Below are positions 1,613 to 44,725 of a DNA stretch of 44,725 bases, piece after piece (position 1 is the stretch's first letter; each line of letters begins with the position of its first letter). The notes under the pieces were generated by a model. That model did no database searches. It had not been told where the DNA came from and saw nothing but the letters and a program-made list of their open reading frames with translations. The position numbers and the translations under genes were made by a program. Origin of the DNA: a virus; IMG/VR virus record IMGVR_UViG_3300045988_053705, positions 1 to 44,725 of that record. One strand, 5' to 3'.

Positions 1613-4089
1613 CACCTTTTATTGGTGGATTGAATACTGAAACAAGCTCTATTCAAGATGCTCCTCTGAATACTTCTGATGAACTTAACTGTTCAATTTA
1701 TCCTGAAGGTATTAGAGGTAGACGCTACGGTATTACAATCGAAAGAGATGGACAAAGCTTTGAAGTGCCTGAAGAGACTCAATCATCTTATTCAGGATTC
1801 TATTGGAAGAACGTAGGAAAGACTGCTAAAGATCTTATTGTACAGCAGGCAGGTTCTCATTTGTATTTCTATGATGCTAGTACCAAACCCTTCAGTAAAA
1901 GTAAAGAGCCTGATTCAGTAGACTTATCAAAGTATGTAACAGATACTGCAAACTTCTACAGCTATCCAGTAAACTATTCTTCTGGTGATGGTAAGCTAAT
2001 GGTTGTGTCTAAGTATATGAAGCCTTTATATATATCTTATGACTTTGATAATCAAGAATTTAAAGTAGATATCATAAGCCTTAAGTACAGAGACTTAGAA
2101 GGACTTGATGATGGTCTTAAAGTAGATGCACAACCTACTGATTTATCTGATGAACACGAATACAATCTTTTAAATCAAGGATGGACACGTCAACAGATAG
2201 AAGCATTCCATACAAAGGTCTCTAGATACCCTTCTAATAACCTTCAATGGTTTATTGGTAAGGATGATTCAGGTGCTTTTAATACAGAGAAACTATTAGC
2301 AACTTACTTTGGAAATACACCAGCTCCTAAAGGACATTACATACTTGATTACTTTGATAGAGATAGAGGGTCTGCATCAGGTATTCTTTTAGGAACTGCT
2401 AGACAAGCTTCCTACAGTCTTAATCAGAACTGGGGATACTCTTCTAGAAGTTGGCATGTGTCCCCTATTCGTAATATATCTGTAGTTATTCCTTCATCAG
2501 TAGGTACTTCAAAGACCTGTGTAGTAAACTTCTCAACATTAATTACAAAGCTTGCTAAAGCTTCTTTAGGTACCTATAGAGGTAATGCAAGAATGAAGAT
2601 ATGGGGTCTTAAAGAAGGTAACTGGATTGAAGTATTCTCCGATGTACACTATTTCTCAGGCCCCGAAATATATACTTTAGAATATCCTACTAATGATACT
2701 GCATATGAACAGTACAAATTCACTGCAGAGTTTTATGATGGAGCTACTACAAGTGATGCAGGAGGTTGTCCTACACAGTTAACAGTATCTTTGCAGCTAG
2801 CTATTACAGAAGATGGTAACCCTTTCCCGTACACTCACGGACTTGATATGATTGCTGATGTAGCTTACATGTCTGGTAAATACTTTTATCTTTCTGGTGA
2901 TACTGTGTTATTCTCTCAGACCATTAAAGAGGATAGTAGTGGCTTTGATAAATGCTATCAAGATGCTGATCCAACTTCTGAAGAGATATCAGATCTTTTA
3001 CCAACTGACGGAGGCTATGTAAAATTTCAAACAATGGGTGATGGTATAGCCTTAGAAGTATTTAATAGAGGTGTGATAGTCTTTGGTAGAGATATTGTGT
3101 TTGGTCTTATCAGTCCCTCTACAGGTAGATTTACAGCTACTGAATATGATACTGTAGAGCTATCCAGAGCAGGTATTATAGGTCCTAGAACAGTTGTACA
3201 AGCTAATAACGTAGTCTACTACTGGTCTCCTTTAGGTATCTTTTCTATAGGCATTAACTACAATACCGACAATATCTTAACAGCTTCTAACATCTCTCAG
3301 AATACTATTCAAAGTTTTTATAATGATCTTCCTAAGTATTCTAAAGAACACTGTCAAGCTTCCTTTGACTACGTTAATAACAGAATTTACTGGTTCTATC
3401 CTTTAGATGTAGAAGATCTTTCAAAGCTTAATGGTTGTCTTGTGTATGATCTTACATATAATGCTCTCTATCCTTTAAAGATATCTGATGGAGGAAAAGT
3501 AGTAGCTGTGTTCAATACTGTTGACAGCTTTGAAATTCAACCTACACAATATGTAAGAGCTAATGGTGCTCGTGTTATAGCAGGTGGTAAATATGTAATA
3601 GCACAAGAGCAAGTAAATGACTACAACAGATATGTAGCAATACAACACAATATCATTACAGAAGATGGTAAGTTATCTTTTGGAGACTTTAATAGCAGAG
3701 AGTTTATTGATTGGGATACTAATGGATACGATAGTTATATGGTGTCTAAGCCTATTGTGTTGCAGGATACATACTTGAATAAGCAAGTTCCAATACTTCA
3801 AACATTATTTAAGAGAACTGAAGAGAGAGAATTAAGAACACCTAGAACATACTTAGCAGCTTCTGGTGCATATTTAAGAATGAGATGGGGCTGGTCAATG
3901 GATTCTAAAAGTAATAGATGGGATCTTATTCAGAATTCTTACAGACCTCAAAAGGATTTCTTGAATGATGAATACGTAGAATCTAGAATACATGTAAGAG
4001 GAAGAGGTAAAAGCTTTCAAATAGAAGTACGTAATGATTCTAATAAAGATTTTAAATTAGCTGGCATTAATTTATTAGTGAGACAATAA
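1588..4089 (+). CDS. Large virion protein, putatively a tail tubular/nozzle protein (T7 gp12-like by size and position)
   Basis: 833-aa ORF in the structural operon, followed by the Gly/Ala-rich and giant proteins as in the T7 gp12-gp14-gp15/16 arrangement. No motif-level confirmation. Confidence 0.45.
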   Translation: MPDSQVFIAPFIGGLNTETSSIQDAPLNTSDELNCSIYPEGIRGRRYGITIERDGQSFEVPEETQSSYSGFYWKNVGKTAKDLIVQQAGSHLYFYDASTKPFSKSKEPDSVDLSKYVTDTANFYSYPVNYSSGDGKLMVVSKYMKPLYISYDFDNQEFKVDIISLKYRDLEGLDDGLKVDAQPTDLSDEHEYNLLNQGWTRQQIEAFHTKVSRYPSNNLQWFIGKDDSGAFNTEKLLATYFGNTPAPKGHYILDYFDRDRGSASGILLGTARQASYSLNQNWGYSSRSWHVSPIRNISVVIPSSVGTSKTCVVNFSTLITKLAKASLGTYRGNARMKIWGLKEGNWIEVFSDVHYFSGPEIYTLEYPTNDTAYEQYKFTAEFYDGATTSDAGGCPTQLTVSLQLAITEDGNPFPYTHGLDMIADVAYMSGKYFYLSGDTVLFSQTIKEDSSGFDKCYQDADPTSEEISDLLPTDGGYVKFQTMGDGIALEVFNRGVIVFGRDIVFGLISPSTGRFTATEYDTVELSRAGIIGPRTVVQANNVVYYWSPLGIFSIGINYNTDNILTASNISQNTIQSFYNDLPKYSKEHCQASFDYVNNRIYWFYPLDVEDLSKLNGCLVYDLTYNALYPLKISDGGKVVAVFNTVDSFEIQPTQYVRANGARVIAGGKYVIAQEQVNDYNRYVAIQHNIITEDGKLSFGDFNSREFIDWDTNGYDSYMVSKPIVLQDTYLNKQVPILQTLFKRTEERELRTPRTYLAASGAYLRMRWGWSMDSKSNRWDLIQNSYRPQKDFLNDEYVESRIHVRGRGKSFQIEVRNDSNKDFKLAGINLLVRQ

Positions 4090-26463: not shown

Positions 26464-28143
26464 TTACCTTTTAAATACTTGTATTGTTACTTTGTCATCT
26501 TCAACAACTCTCAACAAGATAGCATCTAAAGAAGTCTCTTTAATGTATCCTTTAAGATGTTCTTTCAAAGACTTTAAAGAAGGCATAGATACTGAAGAAT
26601 TAATACCTTTATAAAGATATAAACATCCTTCAGAGAATACATTTCTATCTGTTCTGGCACCTCTAATACCGAAGTGAGAAGTAGAAATTTCACGTGAAGA
26701 AGATGTGATAGAATCTAATAGAATGCCACCATTAATATAAGTAATGACAGCAAGAGATGAAACAGGACTTGAAAAATACTTTGAGTATTCGTGTTTACTC
26801 TTTTCTTCAGGAATATTTAAACCTGTTATAGGACATCTCTTAGGTGTAAAGAGAACACCATTAACGATAACGCTAGGATTATCTAAGTTTATAGTGCCAA
26901 TGCTACTACAAGACTTTGCATATGTAAGGAAATCAGAGTAATCTCTCATCCATTCTGGAATATACTCTGCATCAATATTGATACCACAGCCATACTTAAA
27001 GTCTACTTTATTTCTTCTGTTATCAGCTATTAAAGAATCTGAATAGAACTTTAATTCTTCTCTAAAGATTCTATACAATCCTTTGCCTCCATTAAAAAGA
27101 CTTCTTCTCTCATCTGAACTATGAGGACCATCACAGATAGCATTGAACTTATCTTTTAAGAACTTGCAACAGAATTCAATAAGAAGATTGTAGTCACTGT
27201 TACGATACTTTTTATCAAGCAACAAGTTTTTATTTTCATCAGCATATCCCCAAGCTCTCCATAACATATTAGGACTATGGAATTTTGTGCCAGAGATAAC
27301 AGATGTTTTCATCACATCCCCTGTAGTTCCATACACAATAAAGCTTTCATCAGCTGTTACAAAAGGAACAAAGCCATACCAACATTTATAATTAGATGAT
27401 AGAGCAAAGCAAGATTGAAAAGCATTACCATAAGAACAATAGAAATAATCAATAGGATTCTTAGAGATAACAATAGCTTTCATTTCAGAGTACATAGAGA
27501 GCCTATCTGTTTGCTTACGTTCAACAAGGAACTGCTTAAGTCTGTATCTATCAACTTCTGAAAGAGGAATGAAGATACGATTGTTAGTAACTTTAAAGTC
27601 TTTGAAAGCTTCAAGTACAAACTCGTGTTCCTTATTAGCGTACTCATAGATTTCTTTACCAAGTCCATTAGGATATTGTGACAAAGCTAGTAAAGCTTTC
27701 AATTCTTCCAAAGGATTAAGAGACTTCAAAGGACAGTCAACAGATTGAGAGTAATCAAAGGAAGCATCAATTTCATCCATATGCTTTTTGAAATCAGGAT
27801 TTAACAGACACTCATCAATATCAGGATAAGCATCAATACCAGCAGCTTTAAGGAGTCTTAAAGTATCAATGTAATTATCGAAAGATACTGTTAAAGATAC
27901 TTTACCTTCAATCTTTTTAAGATACTCTTCATTTATCAACGAATAAACTTTCTTATCTCTGAGAACATAGCTATTAAATACTTCCAAGAACTCTTTAAGT
28001 TTATCATCGATAGCCATAATAAAGGTATCACTTTCAGATTTATCTATCTTTGAAAGGTCTTCTCTCTTCATTTTAGACACATCAATATCTTTAAACAATA
28101 ATTCAATAGCTCTAAAAGCTCTTATAATCTCTTCGTTTTGCAC
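26464..28143 (-). CDS. Large early protein of unknown function (559 aa)
   Basis: Uninterrupted ORF, first large gene after the early-region terminator. I recognise no motifs. Confidence 0.5.
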   Translation of the reverse strand: MQNEEIIRAFRAIELLFKDIDVSKMKREDLSKIDKSESDTFIMAIDDKLKEFLEVFNSYVLRDKKVYSLINEEYLKKIEGKVSLTVSFDNYIDTLRLLKAAGIDAYPDIDECLLNPDFKKHMDEIDASFDYSQSVDCPLKSLNPLEELKALLALSQYPNGLGKEIYEYANKEHEFVLEAFKDFKVTNNRIFIPLSEVDRYRLKQFLVERKQTDRLSMYSEMKAIVISKNPIDYFYCSYGNAFQSCFALSSNYKCWYGFVPFVTADESFIVYGTTGDVMKTSVISGTKFHSPNMLWRAWGYADENKNLLLDKKYRNSDYNLLIEFCCKFLKDKFNAICDGPHSSDERRSLFNGGKGLYRIFREELKFYSDSLIADNRRNKVDFKYGCGINIDAEYIPEWMRDYSDFLTYAKSCSSIGTINLDNPSVIVNGVLFTPKRCPITGLNIPEEKSKHEYSKYFSSPVSSLAVITYINGGILLDSITSSSREISTSHFGIRGARTDRNVFSEGCLYLYKGINSSVSMPSLKSLKEHLKGYIKETSLDAILLRVVEDDKVTIQVFKR

Positions 28144-30256: not shown

Positions 30257-30751
30257 CTATTTATAAGACTCTAACTGTGTCTTTAAAGTGCTCAAGTCTG
30301 CAATAGTTTTATCGGTTAAATGTAGCTTTTCTTTGCTTTTGATAGCCTTGTTAAGAAAGCTATTAAAACTTGATAGCATTGTTCTTAAGTCTTTAAAGTC
30401 TTCCGTGACTTTAACAGATACTTTCAAGTCATACCAGCAGTGATCAATAATGTAGCCATTAACCTGCAAAGGCTGATTATCAACTGTTACAATCTGCAAA
30501 TTGCCTTTATCATTGCTTTTGAGGGCTTTGATGTTAGAGCATTTTGCAAGGTACCATTTGATAATTTGAACGTCCTTAGGTGCTACAGCTCCCAATAAGT
30601 CCTGCAAAGGTTTACTGTTACGACTTAAAGCGCCTTCATAGTTGTTCAAAAAGACTTCAATAGAATCTTGCACAGTTGTTTCGTACTTCTGTCTGCTGTT
30701 TTTAATAGTCTTAAGGTTGCTAGCCAAGATTTGTAAAGCTGTTTGTGTCAT
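30257..30751 (-). CDS. First gene of the leftward early block (164 aa), function unknown
   Basis: ORF track. It sits at the divergent junction. Confidence 0.5.
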   Translation of the reverse strand: MTQTALQILASNLKTIKNSRQKYETTVQDSIEVFLNNYEGALSRNSKPLQDLLGAVAPKDVQIIKWYLAKCSNIKALKSNDKGNLQIVTVDNQPLQVNGYIIDHCWYDLKVSVKVTEDFKDLRTMLSSFNSFLNKAIKSKEKLHLTDKTIADLSTLKTQLESYK

Positions 30752-31080
30752 TTCTCTTTCCTTTCACAAATTTATTAAGTGTGTTTACGTTAGCATATAT
30801 TTTCTTTGGTGTCAATACTTTTTTAAGTATGTCATATGTAGCTTTGCTACTATTCATAGCTATCCAAGGCAAGCCAAGGGCTTTAACTTCCTTTTGATGT
30901 CTCTTTCTTCAGCTGTTATCATCTTATTTAATCCTTTTCTAAAACTTGTCTAAGATATAACAACAATTGTTGCATTTGTCAATAGTTATTTTAAAAAATG
31001 TTTATATCCTTTTTAAAATTTATATTAACTTATAACTAGTCTATAACAGATATTTTTAAATTGTCAATAGGTATTTTTAA

Positions 31081-31380
31081 ATTTTTATAGTTGTTAACAG
31101 TTTGTTTTTGTTGGTTAAAGTTGGTTAAGGGTTGTTAATAGGTTGTTAAGGATTAATAAAATTATTAACAACCGGTTACAGTTGGTTAAAGACTGTTGCA
31201 AGCTGTTGCAAGCGGGCCTGTTAAAGTCGGTTACAGTTGGTTAAAGACTGTTGCAAGCTGTTAAGGGGGTTGTTGCAAGCTGTTGCAAGCTGTTAAGGGG
31301 GTTGTTGCAAGCTGTTGCAAGCTGTTGCAAGCTGTTGCAAGCTGTTAAGGGGGTGGCAAGGGGGTGTTGGGGGCTGTTTA
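31081..31380. repeat. Iteron-like tandem and direct repeat array with G5 tracts. Candidate replication origin or regulatory array.
   Basis: At least 10 copies of the 10-bp unit GCTGTTGCAA. The 34-bp direct repeat GGTTACAGTTGGTTAAAGACTGTTGCAAGCTGTT occurs at 31174..31207 and 31229..31262. GGGGG tracts lie at 31265, 31297, 31349, 31360 and 31369. The array is intergenic, at the divergent junction. Confidence 0.6.
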
Positions 31381-31460
31381 AGGTTCAATAATACGTCGTA
31401 AAAATTTCTCCACAAAATTCCAGCAACTGGAGGCAGACTGTAAACAAGTTATTGACATGC

Positions 31461-31560
31461 CTCTAGGAGCCCGTAGGAAGCCCGTACAGAAGCTTTTAAA
31501 GACTGTCAGCAGTAACTCTACCAGACTTTTACAGATTGCTCTGTACAGCCTTCCTAGGAG
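31461..31560. promoter_or_regulatory. Imperfect palindrome of about 100 bp (CTAGGAG..GGAAGCCCGTACAGAAG ... CTCTGTACAGCCTTCCTAGGAG) directly upstream of the late promoter. Candidate operator.
   Basis: Half-sites CCCGTACAG at 31481..31489 and CTGTACAG at 31541..31548, about 60 bp apart. The same motif pair occurs at 29894..29902 and 29954..29960. Confidence 0.45.
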
Positions 31561-31574
31561 CTTTTATAAAACTG

Positions 31575-31603
31575 TTGACAATTCTTAATAAATATGTTAT
31601 AAT
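31575..31603 (+). promoter_or_regulatory. Exact consensus sigma70 promoter (TTGACA-N17-TATAAT) of the rightward structural operon
   Basis: TTGACA at 31575..31580, a 17-nt spacer, then TATAAT at 31598..31603. It lies 30 nt upstream of the first late gene, which has an AAGGA ribosome-binding site. Confidence 0.65.
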
Positions 31604-31632
31604 GCTCTTGTAAATTTAAAAAGGATGTCAAC

Positions 31633-32145
31633 ATGACTAAAGTAATATGGAAAGATGATCGTAAACGTGGCAAATATATCACCAATGCAGCTGTTGTAGG
31701 TATTGTAGAGATTATGGAAAGCTGTAGAGGTGACTACAAACCTACTTTTACACTAGCTCCACAACATGAAGACGGCTTATACAGCCTTGAACAACTGTTC
31801 CTAGAGCATTACACAGACCCTACAGAGTACTCTTTCGTTGAAGATGCCTTTGAAGGAGATGTAAAACACTGGGAAGAGTTTAAGAATGGACGTTTTATAC
31901 ACCCTCACTACCTTAAATGGAAGGCTAAAGCTGAAGGAAGACTGTTATCAGAGGCTATGTCTAAGATTGTAAGCACTGCTTTTGATGAAAACAACAAGAA
32001 TTCCTTTCAAGCTCTTAAATATCTGGTGGAACGTAACAACAAATCTTCATCAACTACTGGTAGAGGTAGGCCAAAGAAGGAAAAAGAACAGCCACAGCCT
32101 GATGATAAGCTGTTGATGGATGCAATCAAGCGTATACAGGAGTAA
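31633..32145 (+). CDS. Putative terminase small subunit or DNA-binding packaging protein
   Basis: It lies immediately upstream of the large terminase. C-terminal AT-hook-like GRGRPKKEKE. No family-level motif. Confidence 0.4.
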   Translation: MTKVIWKDDRKRGKYITNAAVVGIVEIMESCRGDYKPTFTLAPQHEDGLYSLEQLFLEHYTDPTEYSFVEDAFEGDVKHWEEFKNGRFIHPHYLKWKAKAEGRLLSEAMSKIVSTAFDENNKNSFQALKYLVERNNKSSSTTGRGRPKKEKEQPQPDDKLLMDAIKRIQE

Positions 32146-32151
32146 TAAACC

Positions 32152-33654
32152 TTGGCAGCAACTGATGAAATCCGTAAACTAGCTGAAGCTGACTTCATAA
32201 GCTTTGTAAAACTGGTTGCACCTTACAATGTTATGGGAGTGTGCCATGAAGAGTTGTGTAAATTTCTTACAAATCCTGATTACAAACCTTATAGACTTGT
32301 TCTTTACCCTCGTGGACACCGTAAAAGCTTCTATGCAGCTATGTATACTTGTTGGCGTATTGTGTGTGACCCTTCCGTTAGTATTGTTTACCTCTCTGCT
32401 ACATCTGATCTTGCAGAAAGCCAGCTACGTACTATCAAAGCTACACTAGACTCTCCCCTTGTTAGAAGAATCTGGCCAGAGCTTATCAATGTTGATGAAG
32501 GTAAACGTGAGAAGTGGACAACAACTGAGATATGTGTAGACGATCCTAGACGTAAAGCTGAAGGAACTCGTGATAGTACTGTTAAAGCTGGTGGATTGAC
32601 TACTAACATTACTGGTGCACACTGTGATCTGATTGTATTAGACGATATGGTGGTACCTAAGAACAATACTGAAGAAGGTCGTAGACAAGTTATATCACAG
32701 TACTCACAGTTGCAATCAATTCTTAACCCTGGTGGTAAGATTCTAGCAGTTGGTACAAGGTATCACCCTAAAGATATATACAGTGTAATGCAAGAGACTG
32801 CTGTAGAGATCTTTGATGATGCTGGAGAGTTGATTGGTAAAGAACCTCAGTGGGAAGTACTGCAAAGATCTGTTGAAGAGAATGGAGAGTTCTTGTGGAA
32901 TAGACAGGTCCGTAAAGACGGTAAGAGCTATGGCTTCGACTTTAGAGAGCTTGCACGAATTAAAGCAAACTATATAGACAAGTCACAGTTCTATGCACAA
33001 TACTACAACGATCCTAACGATGCTGGCTCTGCTCTGATTACTGCTGATATGTTTGAGTACTATAACAGAGATCATCTGTATACTAAAGCTGGCATATATC
33101 ATCTTAAGGACAGACAGTTAAATGTGTATGCAGCTATTGACTTTGCTTTTAGTGCACATGTGAGAGCAGATAGCACAGCTATTGTAGTGGTTGGTGTAGA
33201 CTCTGATAACAATAGGTATGTGTTAGACATCGATAGATTTAAGACAGATCGTATTCAGGACTATTACAATCACGTAATAGCTATTCACCAGAAATACAAT
33301 CTTAAGAAACTGAGAGCAGAAGTTACAGTAGCTCAGCAAGTTATTGTTACAGCTCTTAAAGATAAACTGGCAGAGAATAGTATAAGACTTGTGATAGAGG
33401 ATTACAGACCTCAGACAAAGAAAGAAGAGCGTGTGTTAGCTGTATTAAAGCCTCTATACGAGGATCACAAGATATTTCATTATAGAGGAGGTAACTGTGA
33501 GATTCTTGAAGAAGAACTTAAACAGCTTAAGCCTGCTCACGATGATATTAAGAACGCTTTAGCAGATGCGATATCCATTGCTGTAGCCCCTAAACAAACA
33601 CGATATCAAAAGAAAACTGAAATAAAAGTATTAAGCCGTTTTGGAGGAGTATAA
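32152..33654 (+). CDS. terL: Terminase large subunit (ATPase plus RNase H-like nuclease)
   Basis: Walker A-like YPRGHRKSF. Walker B DLIVLDDM. Nuclease-domain acidic residues AAIDFAFS...VVVGVD. An alternative (TTG) start is implied by the ORF track. Confidence 0.85.
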   Translation: MAATDEIRKLAEADFISFVKLVAPYNVMGVCHEELCKFLTNPDYKPYRLVLYPRGHRKSFYAAMYTCWRIVCDPSVSIVYLSATSDLAESQLRTIKATLDSPLVRRIWPELINVDEGKREKWTTTEICVDDPRRKAEGTRDSTVKAGGLTTNITGAHCDLIVLDDMVVPKNNTEEGRRQVISQYSQLQSILNPGGKILAVGTRYHPKDIYSVMQETAVEIFDDAGELIGKEPQWEVLQRSVEENGEFLWNRQVRKDGKSYGFDFRELARIKANYIDKSQFYAQYYNDPNDAGSALITADMFEYYNRDHLYTKAGIYHLKDRQLNVYAAIDFAFSAHVRADSTAIVVVGVDSDNNRYVLDIDRFKTDRIQDYYNHVIAIHQKYNLKKLRAEVTVAQQVIVTALKDKLAENSIRLVIEDYRPQTKKEERVLAVLKPLYEDHKIFHYRGGNCEILEEELKQLKPAHDDIKNALADAISIAVAPKQTRYQKKTEIKVLSRFGGV

Positions 33655-37909: not shown

Positions 37910-38368
37910 ATGGCAACAGGTGATATTGAGCATCGAGAACTTCCTGATGAATTACTGCATGAGCCTAAAGGAGCATCAACAGCTTCTGCAGGCACTTCTT
38001 ATATTGCAGATGGGGAAGGCTCAGGTGAATTTAAAAAGATTCCTGTAAGTTCTTTAGACATTACAGTTTCTGCTGTAGATGATGAAGCTACTGGAGATAT
38101 TACTAACATAATTGCAATTAATGGAGATACTCTTGCACAGGTTGCTACAGGTGCTCTTGTGGATCTTTTATCTTATCAGGAAATCCCACAAGAAATGACT
38201 GTGACTATTAATAAGAACACAGTAGAAATTTATAGACTTTATTTAAATCTTGTTAGTATTGTTAATAGTACTAAAGAAAAAGTAAGCAAGATTGATCAAA
38301 AACTCTCTTCAGTTATAACAGCTTTAAAAGGTATTGGATTATTAAAAGATGGTGAAAGTAGCAATTAA
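37910..38368 (+). CDS. Hypothetical structural protein (152 aa)
   Basis: ORF track. It lies between the capsid and fibre genes. Confidence 0.4.
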   Translation: MATGDIEHRELPDELLHEPKGASTASAGTSYIADGEGSGEFKKIPVSSLDITVSAVDDEATGDITNIIAINGDTLAQVATGALVDLLSYQEIPQEMTVTINKNTVEIYRLYLNLVSIVNSTKEKVSKIDQKLSSVITALKGIGLLKDGESSN

Positions 38369-40196
38369 AAGGCTGGATAGTGTTACGCATAATGACACAG
38401 CAGCCACAGCATTAATTAATGAAAACTTCAATAGCCTTCAAAAAGCTATTGAGAATACTTTATCACGTGATGGCACTACTCCTAACTTTATGGATGCAGA
38501 GCTGGATATGAACAGCAGACGTATTATCAATGGTGCAGAAGCTGTTGAAGATAATGATTATGTAACATACGGACAGATTAAAGACAATATTGCAGGTGCT
38601 GCTCTAGCTGCTGCAGAAGCCAATGCAAGTGCTTCACGAGCTGAAGTATCCGCACAAGCTGCTTCTATTTCTGCACAGACTGCATTAGCTGCTTCAAATG
38701 CTGCTAAAGAAGTTAAAGAATATGTAAATAGTGTAGTGCAGGATGAAAGCTTTATAGCTGTATCAGAAGATCTGCAGAAGGGTGAAGATAGCGAGATTGT
38801 AAAACTCAACAGCAATATGGAAGATGTAAAAGCTGTTGCAGGAGATCTTGATAATGTAAGTGTAGTTGCTTCTAACATTGCTGATGTAAATACTGTTGCA
38901 ACTAATATAGCTGATGTAACTGCTGTAGCTGATAATAAAGCTAATGTAGATACTGTTGCGGCTTCTATTGCAGCTGTAGCAGGTGTTGCAGCTATCTCTG
39001 CAGCTGTTGTAGCTGTTGATGCTAATAAAGAAAACATTAATGCTGTAAAAGCTAATGAAGCTAATATTAATACTGTAGCAGGTGCTGCAGGTAATGTTAA
39101 TATTGTTGCTGGTATTTCTGCTGATGTAACTGCTGTAGCTGGCAATGAGACTGACATTAAATCTGTAGCAGCTAATATAAGCAACATCAATACTGCTGCT
39201 AGTTCTGCTGAAGATATAAATAAAGTAGCAGAAGGGATTGAACAAGTAAAAGAAGTTGCTACTGATATTATGGATGTTATTACAGTAGCTGGCATAAGTG
39301 AGCAAGTACAGAATGTGTCTATGAATATGGATGCAGTTACTACAGCAAATTCTATTAAAGATAGCATTGTAACTGTTGCAAATAATGCAGATGCTGTTCA
39401 AGTTGCTGCTGACAATATTGAGGATATTAAAGAAGCTGCTAATGCTAAGATATGGGCAGAGGGTACTGATCCAGAAGTTGAAGGTATTGGAGGTACTCAC
39501 TCAGCTAAAGGATGGGCTGAATTAGCTCAGCAAGTAGTTGGTATACAGCCTGCAACTGAAGACACATTAGGTATTGTAAAGCTTGCAACAGAAGCAGAAG
39601 CTATTGAAGGCTTTGATGATAGCACTGCAATGACTCCTCTAAAGACTGCTAAAGTTGTATACGATAATGTTGGAAAAGGTATTCAATTAGGTTTCATAGG
39701 TACTCTTGAAGGAGATACTTTAACATTTGAAACAACTGATCCAAATCCTTATACAATTAGACACAACTACTGCTATGAATTGGATCTGTCTTTTCAGGCC
39801 GTAGGAAGTCTTGATGATAGTATTAAGATTGTAATTAAGAATGGTGAAGACTACATCAATATTGTTAACGTACTGCATGATGATTTAACACAGCCTATTA
39901 CTGTAGGAGAGCTTAAGCAAGTTATGAAGTACACTACAGATATTGGTTGGAGATGGATCTTCGAGACTCGTTTTGCTATTACTGCAGAAAGTCACAAGGT
40001 CTTCATAATGCCTTCTACTGTAGTTGATGTCAATGCTCTTCCAGATCAAACAGGACAGTCTGGTAAATACTTAACTACTGATGGCTCAACAGCTAGCTGG
40101 GGTGTGTTAGATGTAGTTCCTCATATAGTTGTTGATGCTTTGCCAGAAACACCTGATGAAAACGCATTTTACTATATTCCAGAGGCTTCAGAATGA
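38349..40196 (+). CDS. Fibrous protein with about 25 hendecad (11-residue) repeats (tail fibre or head fibre)
   Basis: Repeats of the type ASNIADVNTVA / TNIADVTAVAD / GISADVTAVAG between roughly residues 150 and 380. C-terminal globular part. Confidence 0.55.
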   Translation: MVKVAIKRLDSVTHNDTAATALINENFNSLQKAIENTLSRDGTTPNFMDAELDMNSRRIINGAEAVEDNDYVTYGQIKDNIAGAALAAAEANASASRAEVSAQAASISAQTALAASNAAKEVKEYVNSVVQDESFIAVSEDLQKGEDSEIVKLNSNMEDVKAVAGDLDNVSVVASNIADVNTVATNIADVTAVADNKANVDTVAASIAAVAGVAAISAAVVAVDANKENINAVKANEANINTVAGAAGNVNIVAGISADVTAVAGNETDIKSVAANISNINTAASSAEDINKVAEGIEQVKEVATDIMDVITVAGISEQVQNVSMNMDAVTTANSIKDSIVTVANNADAVQVAADNIEDIKEAANAKIWAEGTDPEVEGIGGTHSAKGWAELAQQVVGIQPATEDTLGIVKLATEAEAIEGFDDSTAMTPLKTAKVVYDNVGKGIQLGFIGTLEGDTLTFETTDPNPYTIRHNYCYELDLSFQAVGSLDDSIKIVIKNGEDYINIVNVLHDDLTQPITVGELKQVMKYTTDIGWRWIFETRFAITAESHKVFIMPSTVVDVNALPDQTGQSGKYLTTDGSTASWGVLDVVPHIVVDALPETPDENAFYYIPEASE

Positions 40197-44354: not shown

Positions 44355-44658
44355 ACTTGACTTAGCTGAAGAGAGACTATTCACAGGTCTCTTTGGAAGC
44401 ACTACATTAGATGCAAAAGCTCAATGGCTGTTAAAGTTTCTTGGTATAGATATAAATGATTTAATACAAAATTTTGAAGGCGTAGTGAAACCTTTGATGG
44501 ATGATGATGGGCTGGTTAATGCTGAATTAGCTCGCTCGTTAGTCTCAACAAAATCTCCACTGCTCTCTAATATCATACCTACTTATAACTTTCGTTTGGT
44601 TGATGTGTCTGATGGTGTTGTAGAACTATTGAAAGGACTATTAAATGGAAGAATATAA
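44329..44658 (+). CDS. Hypothetical protein (109 aa). Its 3' end lies within the terminal repeat.
   Basis: ORF track. Confidence 0.4.
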   Translation: MLTDVRQNELDLAEERLFTGLFGSTTLDAKAQWLLKFLGIDINDLIQNFEGVVKPLMDDDGLVNAELARSLVSTKSPLLSNIIPTYNFRLVDVSDGVVELLKGLLNGRI

Positions 44659-44725
44659 GAAGAGGATTTGTGCTGGCATCAGTATGGTGCTTGAGAAATC
44701 TGAAAAGATTGGTAGAGAAAAAAGA
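44607..44725. repeat. Terminal direct repeat (copy 2)
   Basis: Identical to 1..119. Confidence 0.9.

Follow-up and report, generated by a model that had tools for sequence, protein, structure and literature searches.

A 10-bp-phased repeat array at the divergent gene junction of a Zobellviridae-like podovirus is more likely linked to genome packaging than to a replication origin

The divergent junction and its flanking genes

Our study reports on a tandem repeat array in the genome of a Zobellviridae-like podovirus, which combines a large terminase of the T7 type with a replisome resembling that of T7. The window analysed here is the whole 44,725-nucleotide IMG/VR record IMGVR_UViG_3300045988_053705. 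Positions 1-119 and 44607-44725 are an exact 119-bp terminal overlap; the window is therefore a circularised assembly of about 44.6 kb with arbitrary ends, and plus-strand genes continue across the circular join. Two gene modules diverge from an 881-bp non-coding gap (30752-31632), with the first minus-strand gene beginning at 30751 on one side and the first plus-strand gene at 31633 on the other. The plus-strand block begins with a 170-aa protein (31633-32145), whose position directly upstream of the large terminase (TerL) is kept across Zobellviridae, followed by a T7-type TerL (32152-33654; phrog_38, E 4e-91; PF22530, E 1.7e-9) and a portal-sized protein. Among cultured phages, the closest relatives of this TerL belong to Zobellviridae, including ICP2, CW02, P12053L, ICBM1, CVT22 and Klyazma, and share about 50% identity with it; this is also its level of identity to the TerL of Zobellviridae phages with direct terminal repeats (DTRs).

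The minus-strand block encodes a gp4-like primase-helicase, Pol A, a gp2.5-like SSB, a resolvase, a Cas4-like exonuclease and RNase H. Its first gene (30257-30751, minus strand) specifies a 164-aa protein that is conserved in relatives. The AlphaFold model of this protein has a pLDDT of 87, yet it gave no significant fold match in the PDB; a profile search against PDB sequences was also negative, and no DNA-binding fold or family was found. A 559-aa early protein (26464-28143, minus strand) has no match in PHROGs, Pfam or NCBIfam. In the late module, three adjacent 30-bp tandem-repeat tracts at 38873-39077 lie inside a 615-aa ORF (38349-40196) and are probably a repetitive fibre-like or coiled protein segment.

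The early side of the gap, 30752-31080, is AT-rich, with a GC content of 0.258 against 0.359 for the genome. It contains repeated TTGTCAATAG.TATTTTTAAA words at 30976 and 31061 and a leftward sigma-70-like promoter, TTGACA-18-TAGACT, on the minus strand at 31067-31038. The late-operon promoter, TTGACA-17-TATAAT (31575-31603, plus strand), matches the consensus at 12/12 positions, has a TG extension and faces the packaging genes. The AT-rich flank and the placement of the array between divergent early and late promoters, both proposed in a first-pass annotation made from the sequence alone, are thus confirmed. What that annotation overlooked is that the flanking gene set is a packaging module and that related phages carry DTRs at the same junction. 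Within the AT-rich early side there is also a GC-rich island, CCAAGGCAAGCCAAGGGC, at 30858-30886, which recurs in contigs L001 and L006, with a similar island, GGCAAAGCCAAGCCC, in L013. When the gap was searched against phage records at the nucleotide level, the sole match was the late promoter, at 77%, in Lactococcus phage phiQ1; window positions 31575-31657, comprising this promoter and the start of the downstream gene, align with positions 19-99 of the phiQ1 record, which may point to a Firmicutes-type host or to a common promoter cassette.

A strictly phased array of same-strand repeats

Parsing of the sequence resolves about 27 same-strand units at 31091-31385, with the consensus YKGTTRMAAG and a strict 10-bp period, in which units of 12 or 15 bp occur occasionally. 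About 250 bp separate the array from the gene in the small-terminase position, which lies downstream of it. Together with the conserved block described below, the whole feature extends over approximately 31091-31420 and is thus wider than the interval first annotated (31081-31380). Self-identity at a lag of 10/11 bp is 0.58 in the array, compared with a genome mean of 0.297 (sd 0.037); this is the highest value in the genome, and the top-ranked segments all overlap the array. The exact word GCTGTTGCAA occurs six times in the window against 0.16 expected, a count reached in 0/100 shuffles. Five exact copies fall in the region, and nine when one mismatch is allowed, all on the plus strand, so the ten or more copies originally claimed were too many. 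The 9-mer TGTTGCAAG is found nine times in the genome against 0.06 expected, and all nine copies are within the array. The dense repeat array is genuine and far above chance, and in appearance it looks like a phased protein-binding array.

The left part of the array (31091-31172, plus strand) is degenerate, with a period of 10-11 bp and the units TTGTTAAC, TGGTTAAAG and TTGTTAAT; it closes with an 11-bp perfect inverted repeat (31130-31140 and 31163-31173). The first-pass annotation was also right about the upstream variants GTTGTTAA(GG) and GGTTAAAG. The core (31173-31348, plus strand) consists of 10-bp units, namely nine copies of CTGTTGCAAG together with TGGTTAAAGA, CGGTTACAGT and CTGTTAAGG(GGG), and is hypervariable between strains. 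It includes two identical copies of a duplication, at 31173-31207 and 31228-31262; Tandem Repeats Finder and a repeat finder were concordant on the array and on a perfect duplication of 35 bp, so that the two copies first described as 34-bp repeats are real and one base longer. The units are contiguous and have no spacers, in agreement with the initial view that this is not a CRISPR array.

All five GGGGG runs reported in the first-pass annotation are present (31265, 31297, 31349, 31360 and 31369), the last three within 25 nt. They make up 5/11 of the runs in the window, and the genome-wide count is not above chance. Three G5 runs this close together, next to 10-bp direct repeats that resemble ParR-type iterons in form, could be taken for a G-quadruplex element or a plasmid-type centromere (parC/parS-like), and both G-quadruplex potential and binding of a partition protein had been suggested. 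We regard either as very improbable. G-quadruplex prediction found the canonical motif (four runs of at least three G, with loops of 1-7 nt) in only 1/13 genomes, and the window has three runs; no par genes (ParA, ParB or ParR) were found, and a search of 185,579 bacterial and archaeal genomes, covering plasmid and prophage relatives, returned no relatives. Rfam gave nothing relevant in the junction, RNAalifold predicted 0 pairs and the single-strand (ssDNA) fold had a z-score of +0.78, so that neither RNA nor hairpin structure is indicated.

Conserved position and rapid turnover of the repeat units

The divergent layout is kept in every relative fetched, with a gap of 0.8-1.5 kb. The repeat units themselves are lineage-specific: CTGTTGCAAG in the window, TGTTACA/TGTTGACA in L010 and L011, TTGACAGAT/TTTGTCAAA in L014, ACAGATTGCA in L016, AAACAGACAGC in L019 and 32-bp units in L002. 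Motif comparison of the window and its relatives identified no unit motif common to the family. In 4/7 relatives (L010, L011, L014 and L018) the 10-11 bp periodicity upstream of the G-box, the G-rich element that closes the array, is the strongest or among the strongest at the locus; L012 and L017 show it less strongly, and L013 lacks it. In the comparison with related genomes, position is kept, as is phasing in most relatives; unit sequence is lineage-specific and array length differs even between strains. A CTGTT/AACAG core was considered as a family-wide element and rejected, being enriched in the window, L019, L011, L016, L012 and L010 but not in L014, L018, Klyazma or CVT22; an unbiased ranking of 5-mers was dominated by pseudocount artefacts and could not be used. 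Two relatives carry additional genes at the locus: in L016 a DNA methylase gene (866-1429) is inserted between the gene in the small-terminase (terS) position and TerL, and in L017 an extra 141-aa ORF (2057-2482) lies inside the gap.

The most rapid change is seen among close strains, for which we used ten contigs with an identical 170-aa protein. Their complete arrays measure 141, 142, 270 and 280 bp and differ in unit order, the flanking proteins are identical, and the lengths of the G-runs drift. Because a 10-bp unit cannot keep a reading frame and the strains differ by 10-bp steps, the array is non-coding. Six of the ten contigs, mostly of genome length, break off within the array, 311-387 bp from the start codon, and one strain scaffold has an N-gap there, making the array a recurrent assembly breakpoint. 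We considered whether these ends are physical termini and rejected the idea; the offsets vary, which fits assembly breaks induced by the repeats and not a fixed physical end. The IMG/VR search with the exact array returned strain variants and one unrelated, high-GC chance match, L004.

A conserved G-box/A-box block downstream of the array

Immediately downstream of the array position, all compared gaps carry a conserved block in which GGGGGTGGCAAGGGGG, ATTACGTC and AAAAATTTCTCCACAAAATTC follow one another in this order. It is present in at least 15 genomes, of which 12 were aligned and three more were found by pattern search, and can be written as GGGG(G)TRRCA(R)GGGG(G), a spacing of about 15-25 nt, (C)AATATTACGTC, then AAAAA(A)TTTCTC(C)ACAAAA(A)TT. 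On the plus strand of the window, the G-box GGGGGTGGCAAGGGGGTGTTGGGGG (31349-31373) supplies the final units of the periodic array and is an element conserved family-wide; it corresponds to the G5 cluster that had been singled out earlier. It is followed by the conserved TCAATAATACGTC box (31385-31397) and the conserved A-tract box AAAAATTTCTCCACAAAATTC (31400-31420). The A-box of the window contains TTCTCCACA, one mismatch from the DnaA-box consensus.

A second conserved island, ATAGAT.AACGGGCGYRYGCG.ATA, has a GC-rich palindromic core in AT-rich DNA and lies about 400 bp upstream of the G-box in L010 (~3305-3335), L011 (~3340-3365), L012 (~3300-3330), L014 (~3150-3175) and L018 (~3465-3495). 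The lineage of the window lacks this island, which could be the other DTR boundary or a cleavage site.

Genome ends in related phages and in T7

The DTRs of Klyazma are 711 bp long, predicted by PhageTerm and verified by Sanger sequencing (PMC9960094). In its record, plus-strand structural genes follow the left DTR and minus-strand early genes come before the right DTR, so that the divergent junction holds the termini of Klyazma. The left DTR boundary is about 45 bp away from the start of CAAGGGGGTGTACGGGGGCT...TTTCTCACAAAAATT, which lies within the repeat. ICBM1 has DTRs of 172 bp, mapped with PacBio reads (PMC6775973), which also lie in the divergent junction, and its G-box is inside the DTR and ends 17 bp before the late-side boundary. 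The block is thus within about 50 bp of the late-side DTR boundary in both phages. In SIO1 a DTR-like sequence lies in an ORF-free region between the two gene modules (PMC6775973), and in CVT22 the conserved block is near the start of the record. From the G-box side, the DTRs of Klyazma and ICBM1 run toward the early genes; the same direction in the window crosses the array.

The window resembles Klyazma, ICBM1 and CVT22 in its TerL and terS-position protein, which are homologous to theirs, in the divergent arrangement of its modules and in the block of G-box and TTTCTCAC-AAAATT, which in these phages lies by the late-side DTR boundary. By homology with Klyazma and ICBM1, we infer that the DTR of the window phage is likewise at the divergent junction. 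Klyazma and CVT22, however, have the block without a tandem array, and ICBM1 has only loosely spaced GGTRACA words, whereas the gut/rumen clade of the window carries expanded, hypervariable arrays. Since Klyazma and CVT22 have the block alone, the array is not required by the packaging system of the family.

A comparable arrangement exists in T7. In its record a 160-bp DTR is followed, at 175-345, by about 12 units containing YCTAAAG with a period of 13 bp, and this array lies between the terminal repeat and the early promoters. It is reportedly the element that Dunn & Studier called SRL in 1983. To our knowledge, the short-repeat arrays beside the terminal repeats of T7, recognised ever since its genome was sequenced, still lack an established function; a literature search on the SRL and SRR arrays gave nothing usable, and our comparison rests on the T7 record itself. 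Both phages have a T7-type large terminase and a non-coding array of short units in the same orientation with a strict, near-helical period, of similar lag identity (0.60 at 13 bp in T7 and 0.58 at 10 bp in the window), and both have G/C runs in or near the repeat; adjacency to a DTR is seen directly in T7, where the termini are mapped, and in the window would follow from the relatives. The differences are that the period is 13 bp in T7 and 10 bp in the window, the unit sequences are unrelated, and T7 is transcribed in one direction whereas the early and late genes of the window occupy opposite strands in a divergent layout. The window phage also uses the host RNAP, which leaves no place for a mechanism based on a T7-RNAP pause site. 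Packaging in T7 involves recognition of PacB, next to the terminal repeat, by the small terminase gp18, and cleavage at PacC by gp19 (PMC9860248).

These comparisons bear on the suggestion that the array is a neutral minisatellite. In that case a tandem repeat prone to slippage would be tolerated because it falls in a long non-coding junction, and only the G-box and A-box would be functional. The range of 141-280 bp and the variable unit order between strains are what such a repeat would show, as are the lack of conservation of unit sequences and the lack of a clear array in Klyazma, CVT22 and L013. Against neutrality, which we hold to be improbable, an array phased at 10-11 bp recurs at one position relative to the G-box in independent lineages whose units differ, and T7 shows this arrangement too.

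Replication and transcription at the junction

The array was originally put forward as a candidate replication origin. In an origin of this kind, the phased repeats would bind a phage initiator or bend the DNA, the 26%-GC flank would melt and transcripts from the strong flanking promoters would prime the T7-like replisome. The AT-rich flank does adjoin the array, the T7-like set of primase-helicase, Pol A and gp2.5 is present, and T7, with a replisome of this type, relies on AT-rich origins linked to promoters. The minimum of cumulative GC skew, where the skew changes sign, is at about 31 kb; this is uninformative on the origin, because transcription changes direction at the same place. Many early ORFs have no assigned function, and single DnaA-box words (TTATNCACA) occur in the gaps of four relatives (L012 at 3038, L014 at 3398, L017 at 2417 and L018 at 3522), at ~10x the density outside gaps.

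The gap of the window, however, has no such DnaA box, and searches of PHROGs, Pfam and NCBIfam, in which several ORFs received no function, found no initiator, Rep or O-like protein among the early genes. Iterons are typically 17-22 bp long, conserved in sequence and paired with a cognate initiator gene. The iteron origins of lambda (ori) and of plasmids resemble the window in having non-coding direct repeats that adjoin an AT-rich stretch; they differ from it in that the units of the window are 10 bp long, are specific to a lineage and change in copy number even between strains whose proteins are identical, with no initiator found. The part of the junction that is conserved, the G-box and A-box, tracks the DTR boundary. 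An origin at this site is therefore unlikely, and we consider a role in the packaging or terminal-repeat junction more likely.

Transcriptional control offers another explanation, with the array acting as an upstream phased or curved tract, or as a set of operators bound by a phage regulator, for instance the 164-aa product of the first early gene, to activate or silence the divergent promoters. The location between divergent consensus promoters, starting about 24 bp upstream of the leftward promoter -35, would suit this, as would helical phasing without sequence conservation, which is typical of curvature and wrapping elements; the units of some relatives also resemble -35 words (TTGACA/TGTCAA in L014, L018, L039 and L063). 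Against it, the candidate regulator has no recognised DNA-binding fold or family, the late promoter is at least 190 bp from the array, and the cultured relatives have the same layout without arrays. This proposal also leaves the tracking of DTR boundaries by the conserved block unexplained, and we hold it to be rather unlikely.

The protein in the small-terminase position

We found 70 homologs of the 170-aa protein, many on contigs of 44-50 kb. Among cultured phages, homology extends to the gene products immediately preceding TerL in ICP2 (E 2e-15), CVT22 (E 2e-6) and Klyazma (E 4e-8). A GRP(K/S/T/N)K motif is conserved throughout the homologs and is invariant as GRPKK within the clade. In the AlphaFold model (pLDDT 81) the protein is helical, with the AT-hook-like GRPKK motif in a disordered linker. 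No match was found in Pfam, NCBIfam or PDB sequences, nor was there a significant fold match in the PDB, where Foldseek returned the TerS of NV1 only at E 2.9. In BFVD only unnamed proteins are at or near significance (best E 1e-5), and the sub-threshold matches are enriched in TerS (small terminase) annotations. The family is not homologous to T7 gp18 (hhalign probability 0.08%). Judged from its conserved gene position, it is a probable small terminase. The protein is mosaic between lineages: the C-terminal half of the L010 homolog (P0005) is identical to that of the window and the N-terminal half has diverged, and the array units of these two genomes differ as well.

A model for a proposed packaging junction

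As in the window, repeated short sites adjoin the terminase genes in lambda (the R sites of cosB) and SPP1 (the pacL/pacR boxes), where they are thought to organise a multimeric small terminase. In those systems a few spaced, specific sites are paired with a recognisable HTH-type TerS, whereas the window has about 27 contiguous phased units beside a protein without a recognised fold. We put at about an even chance that the array is part of the DTR/packaging (concatemer) junction of this T7-type-terminase podovirus. Consistent with this are the T7-type TerL and the conserved terS-position protein directly upstream of it in ICP2, CVT22 and Klyazma, the mapped DTRs of Klyazma and ICBM1 in the same junction, the array precedent in T7, strain hypervariability between identical flanks, the 10-11 bp phasing in the window and 4/7 relatives, and the lack of RNA or hairpin structure. 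The varying offsets of contig ends, the array-free junctions of Klyazma and CVT22, the terS-position protein without a significant match to a known TerS and the lack of a family-wide unit motif speak against it.

Our comparative data suggest a model for such a packaging junction. The conserved G-box and A-box would be the specific signal for terminase recognition or cleavage, in a role like that of pacB/pacC, and the 10-bp-phased array would lie inside the terminal repeat or largely make it up. The array may provide a helically phased platform of low specificity on one face of the DNA, on which a multimeric small terminase could assemble or wrap, and the AT-hook-like GRPKK motif could reach the phased minor grooves. 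We propose that the hypervariability of the array stems from its tandem nature, with out-of-register annealing of terminal repeats or replication slippage allowing unit number and order to drift fast, while position and phasing are mostly kept.

A more specific form of this model, which we offer tentatively as a possibility, is that the array itself is the DTR, or most of it. Its tandem 10-bp units would change in number by out-of-register annealing or slippage, a ring-forming small terminase with the GRPKK motif would read the helical phasing and not the unit sequence, and the G-box and A-box would be the specific cue for cleavage or recognition. If the late-side boundary is at most 50 bp from the G-box, as in Klyazma and ICBM1, and the early promoter (-35 at 31067) is outside the DTR, the DTR would measure no more than about 280 bp and cover roughly the same stretch as the array.

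These phages form a second clade, unrelated in sequence to T7, with many natural variants of the array (different units, 141-280 bp), and thus provide comparative leverage on the function of such arrays. The G-box/A-box block is a candidate packaging signal for Zobellviridae-like phages as a family; it could serve to orient and delimit metagenomic genomes of the group and in the design of transducing or contained particles. G-box-like words (GGGGGTRRCARGGGGG) also occur in unrelated IMG/VR contigs (L037/L057, L044, L050, L053, L054 and L056), often as tandem or inverted GGGGGTGACA repeats. In L037/L057 (~5960 on the minus strand and 566 on the plus strand) a G-box is followed by an AACAA array with an 11-bp period, the same architecture in another phage group.
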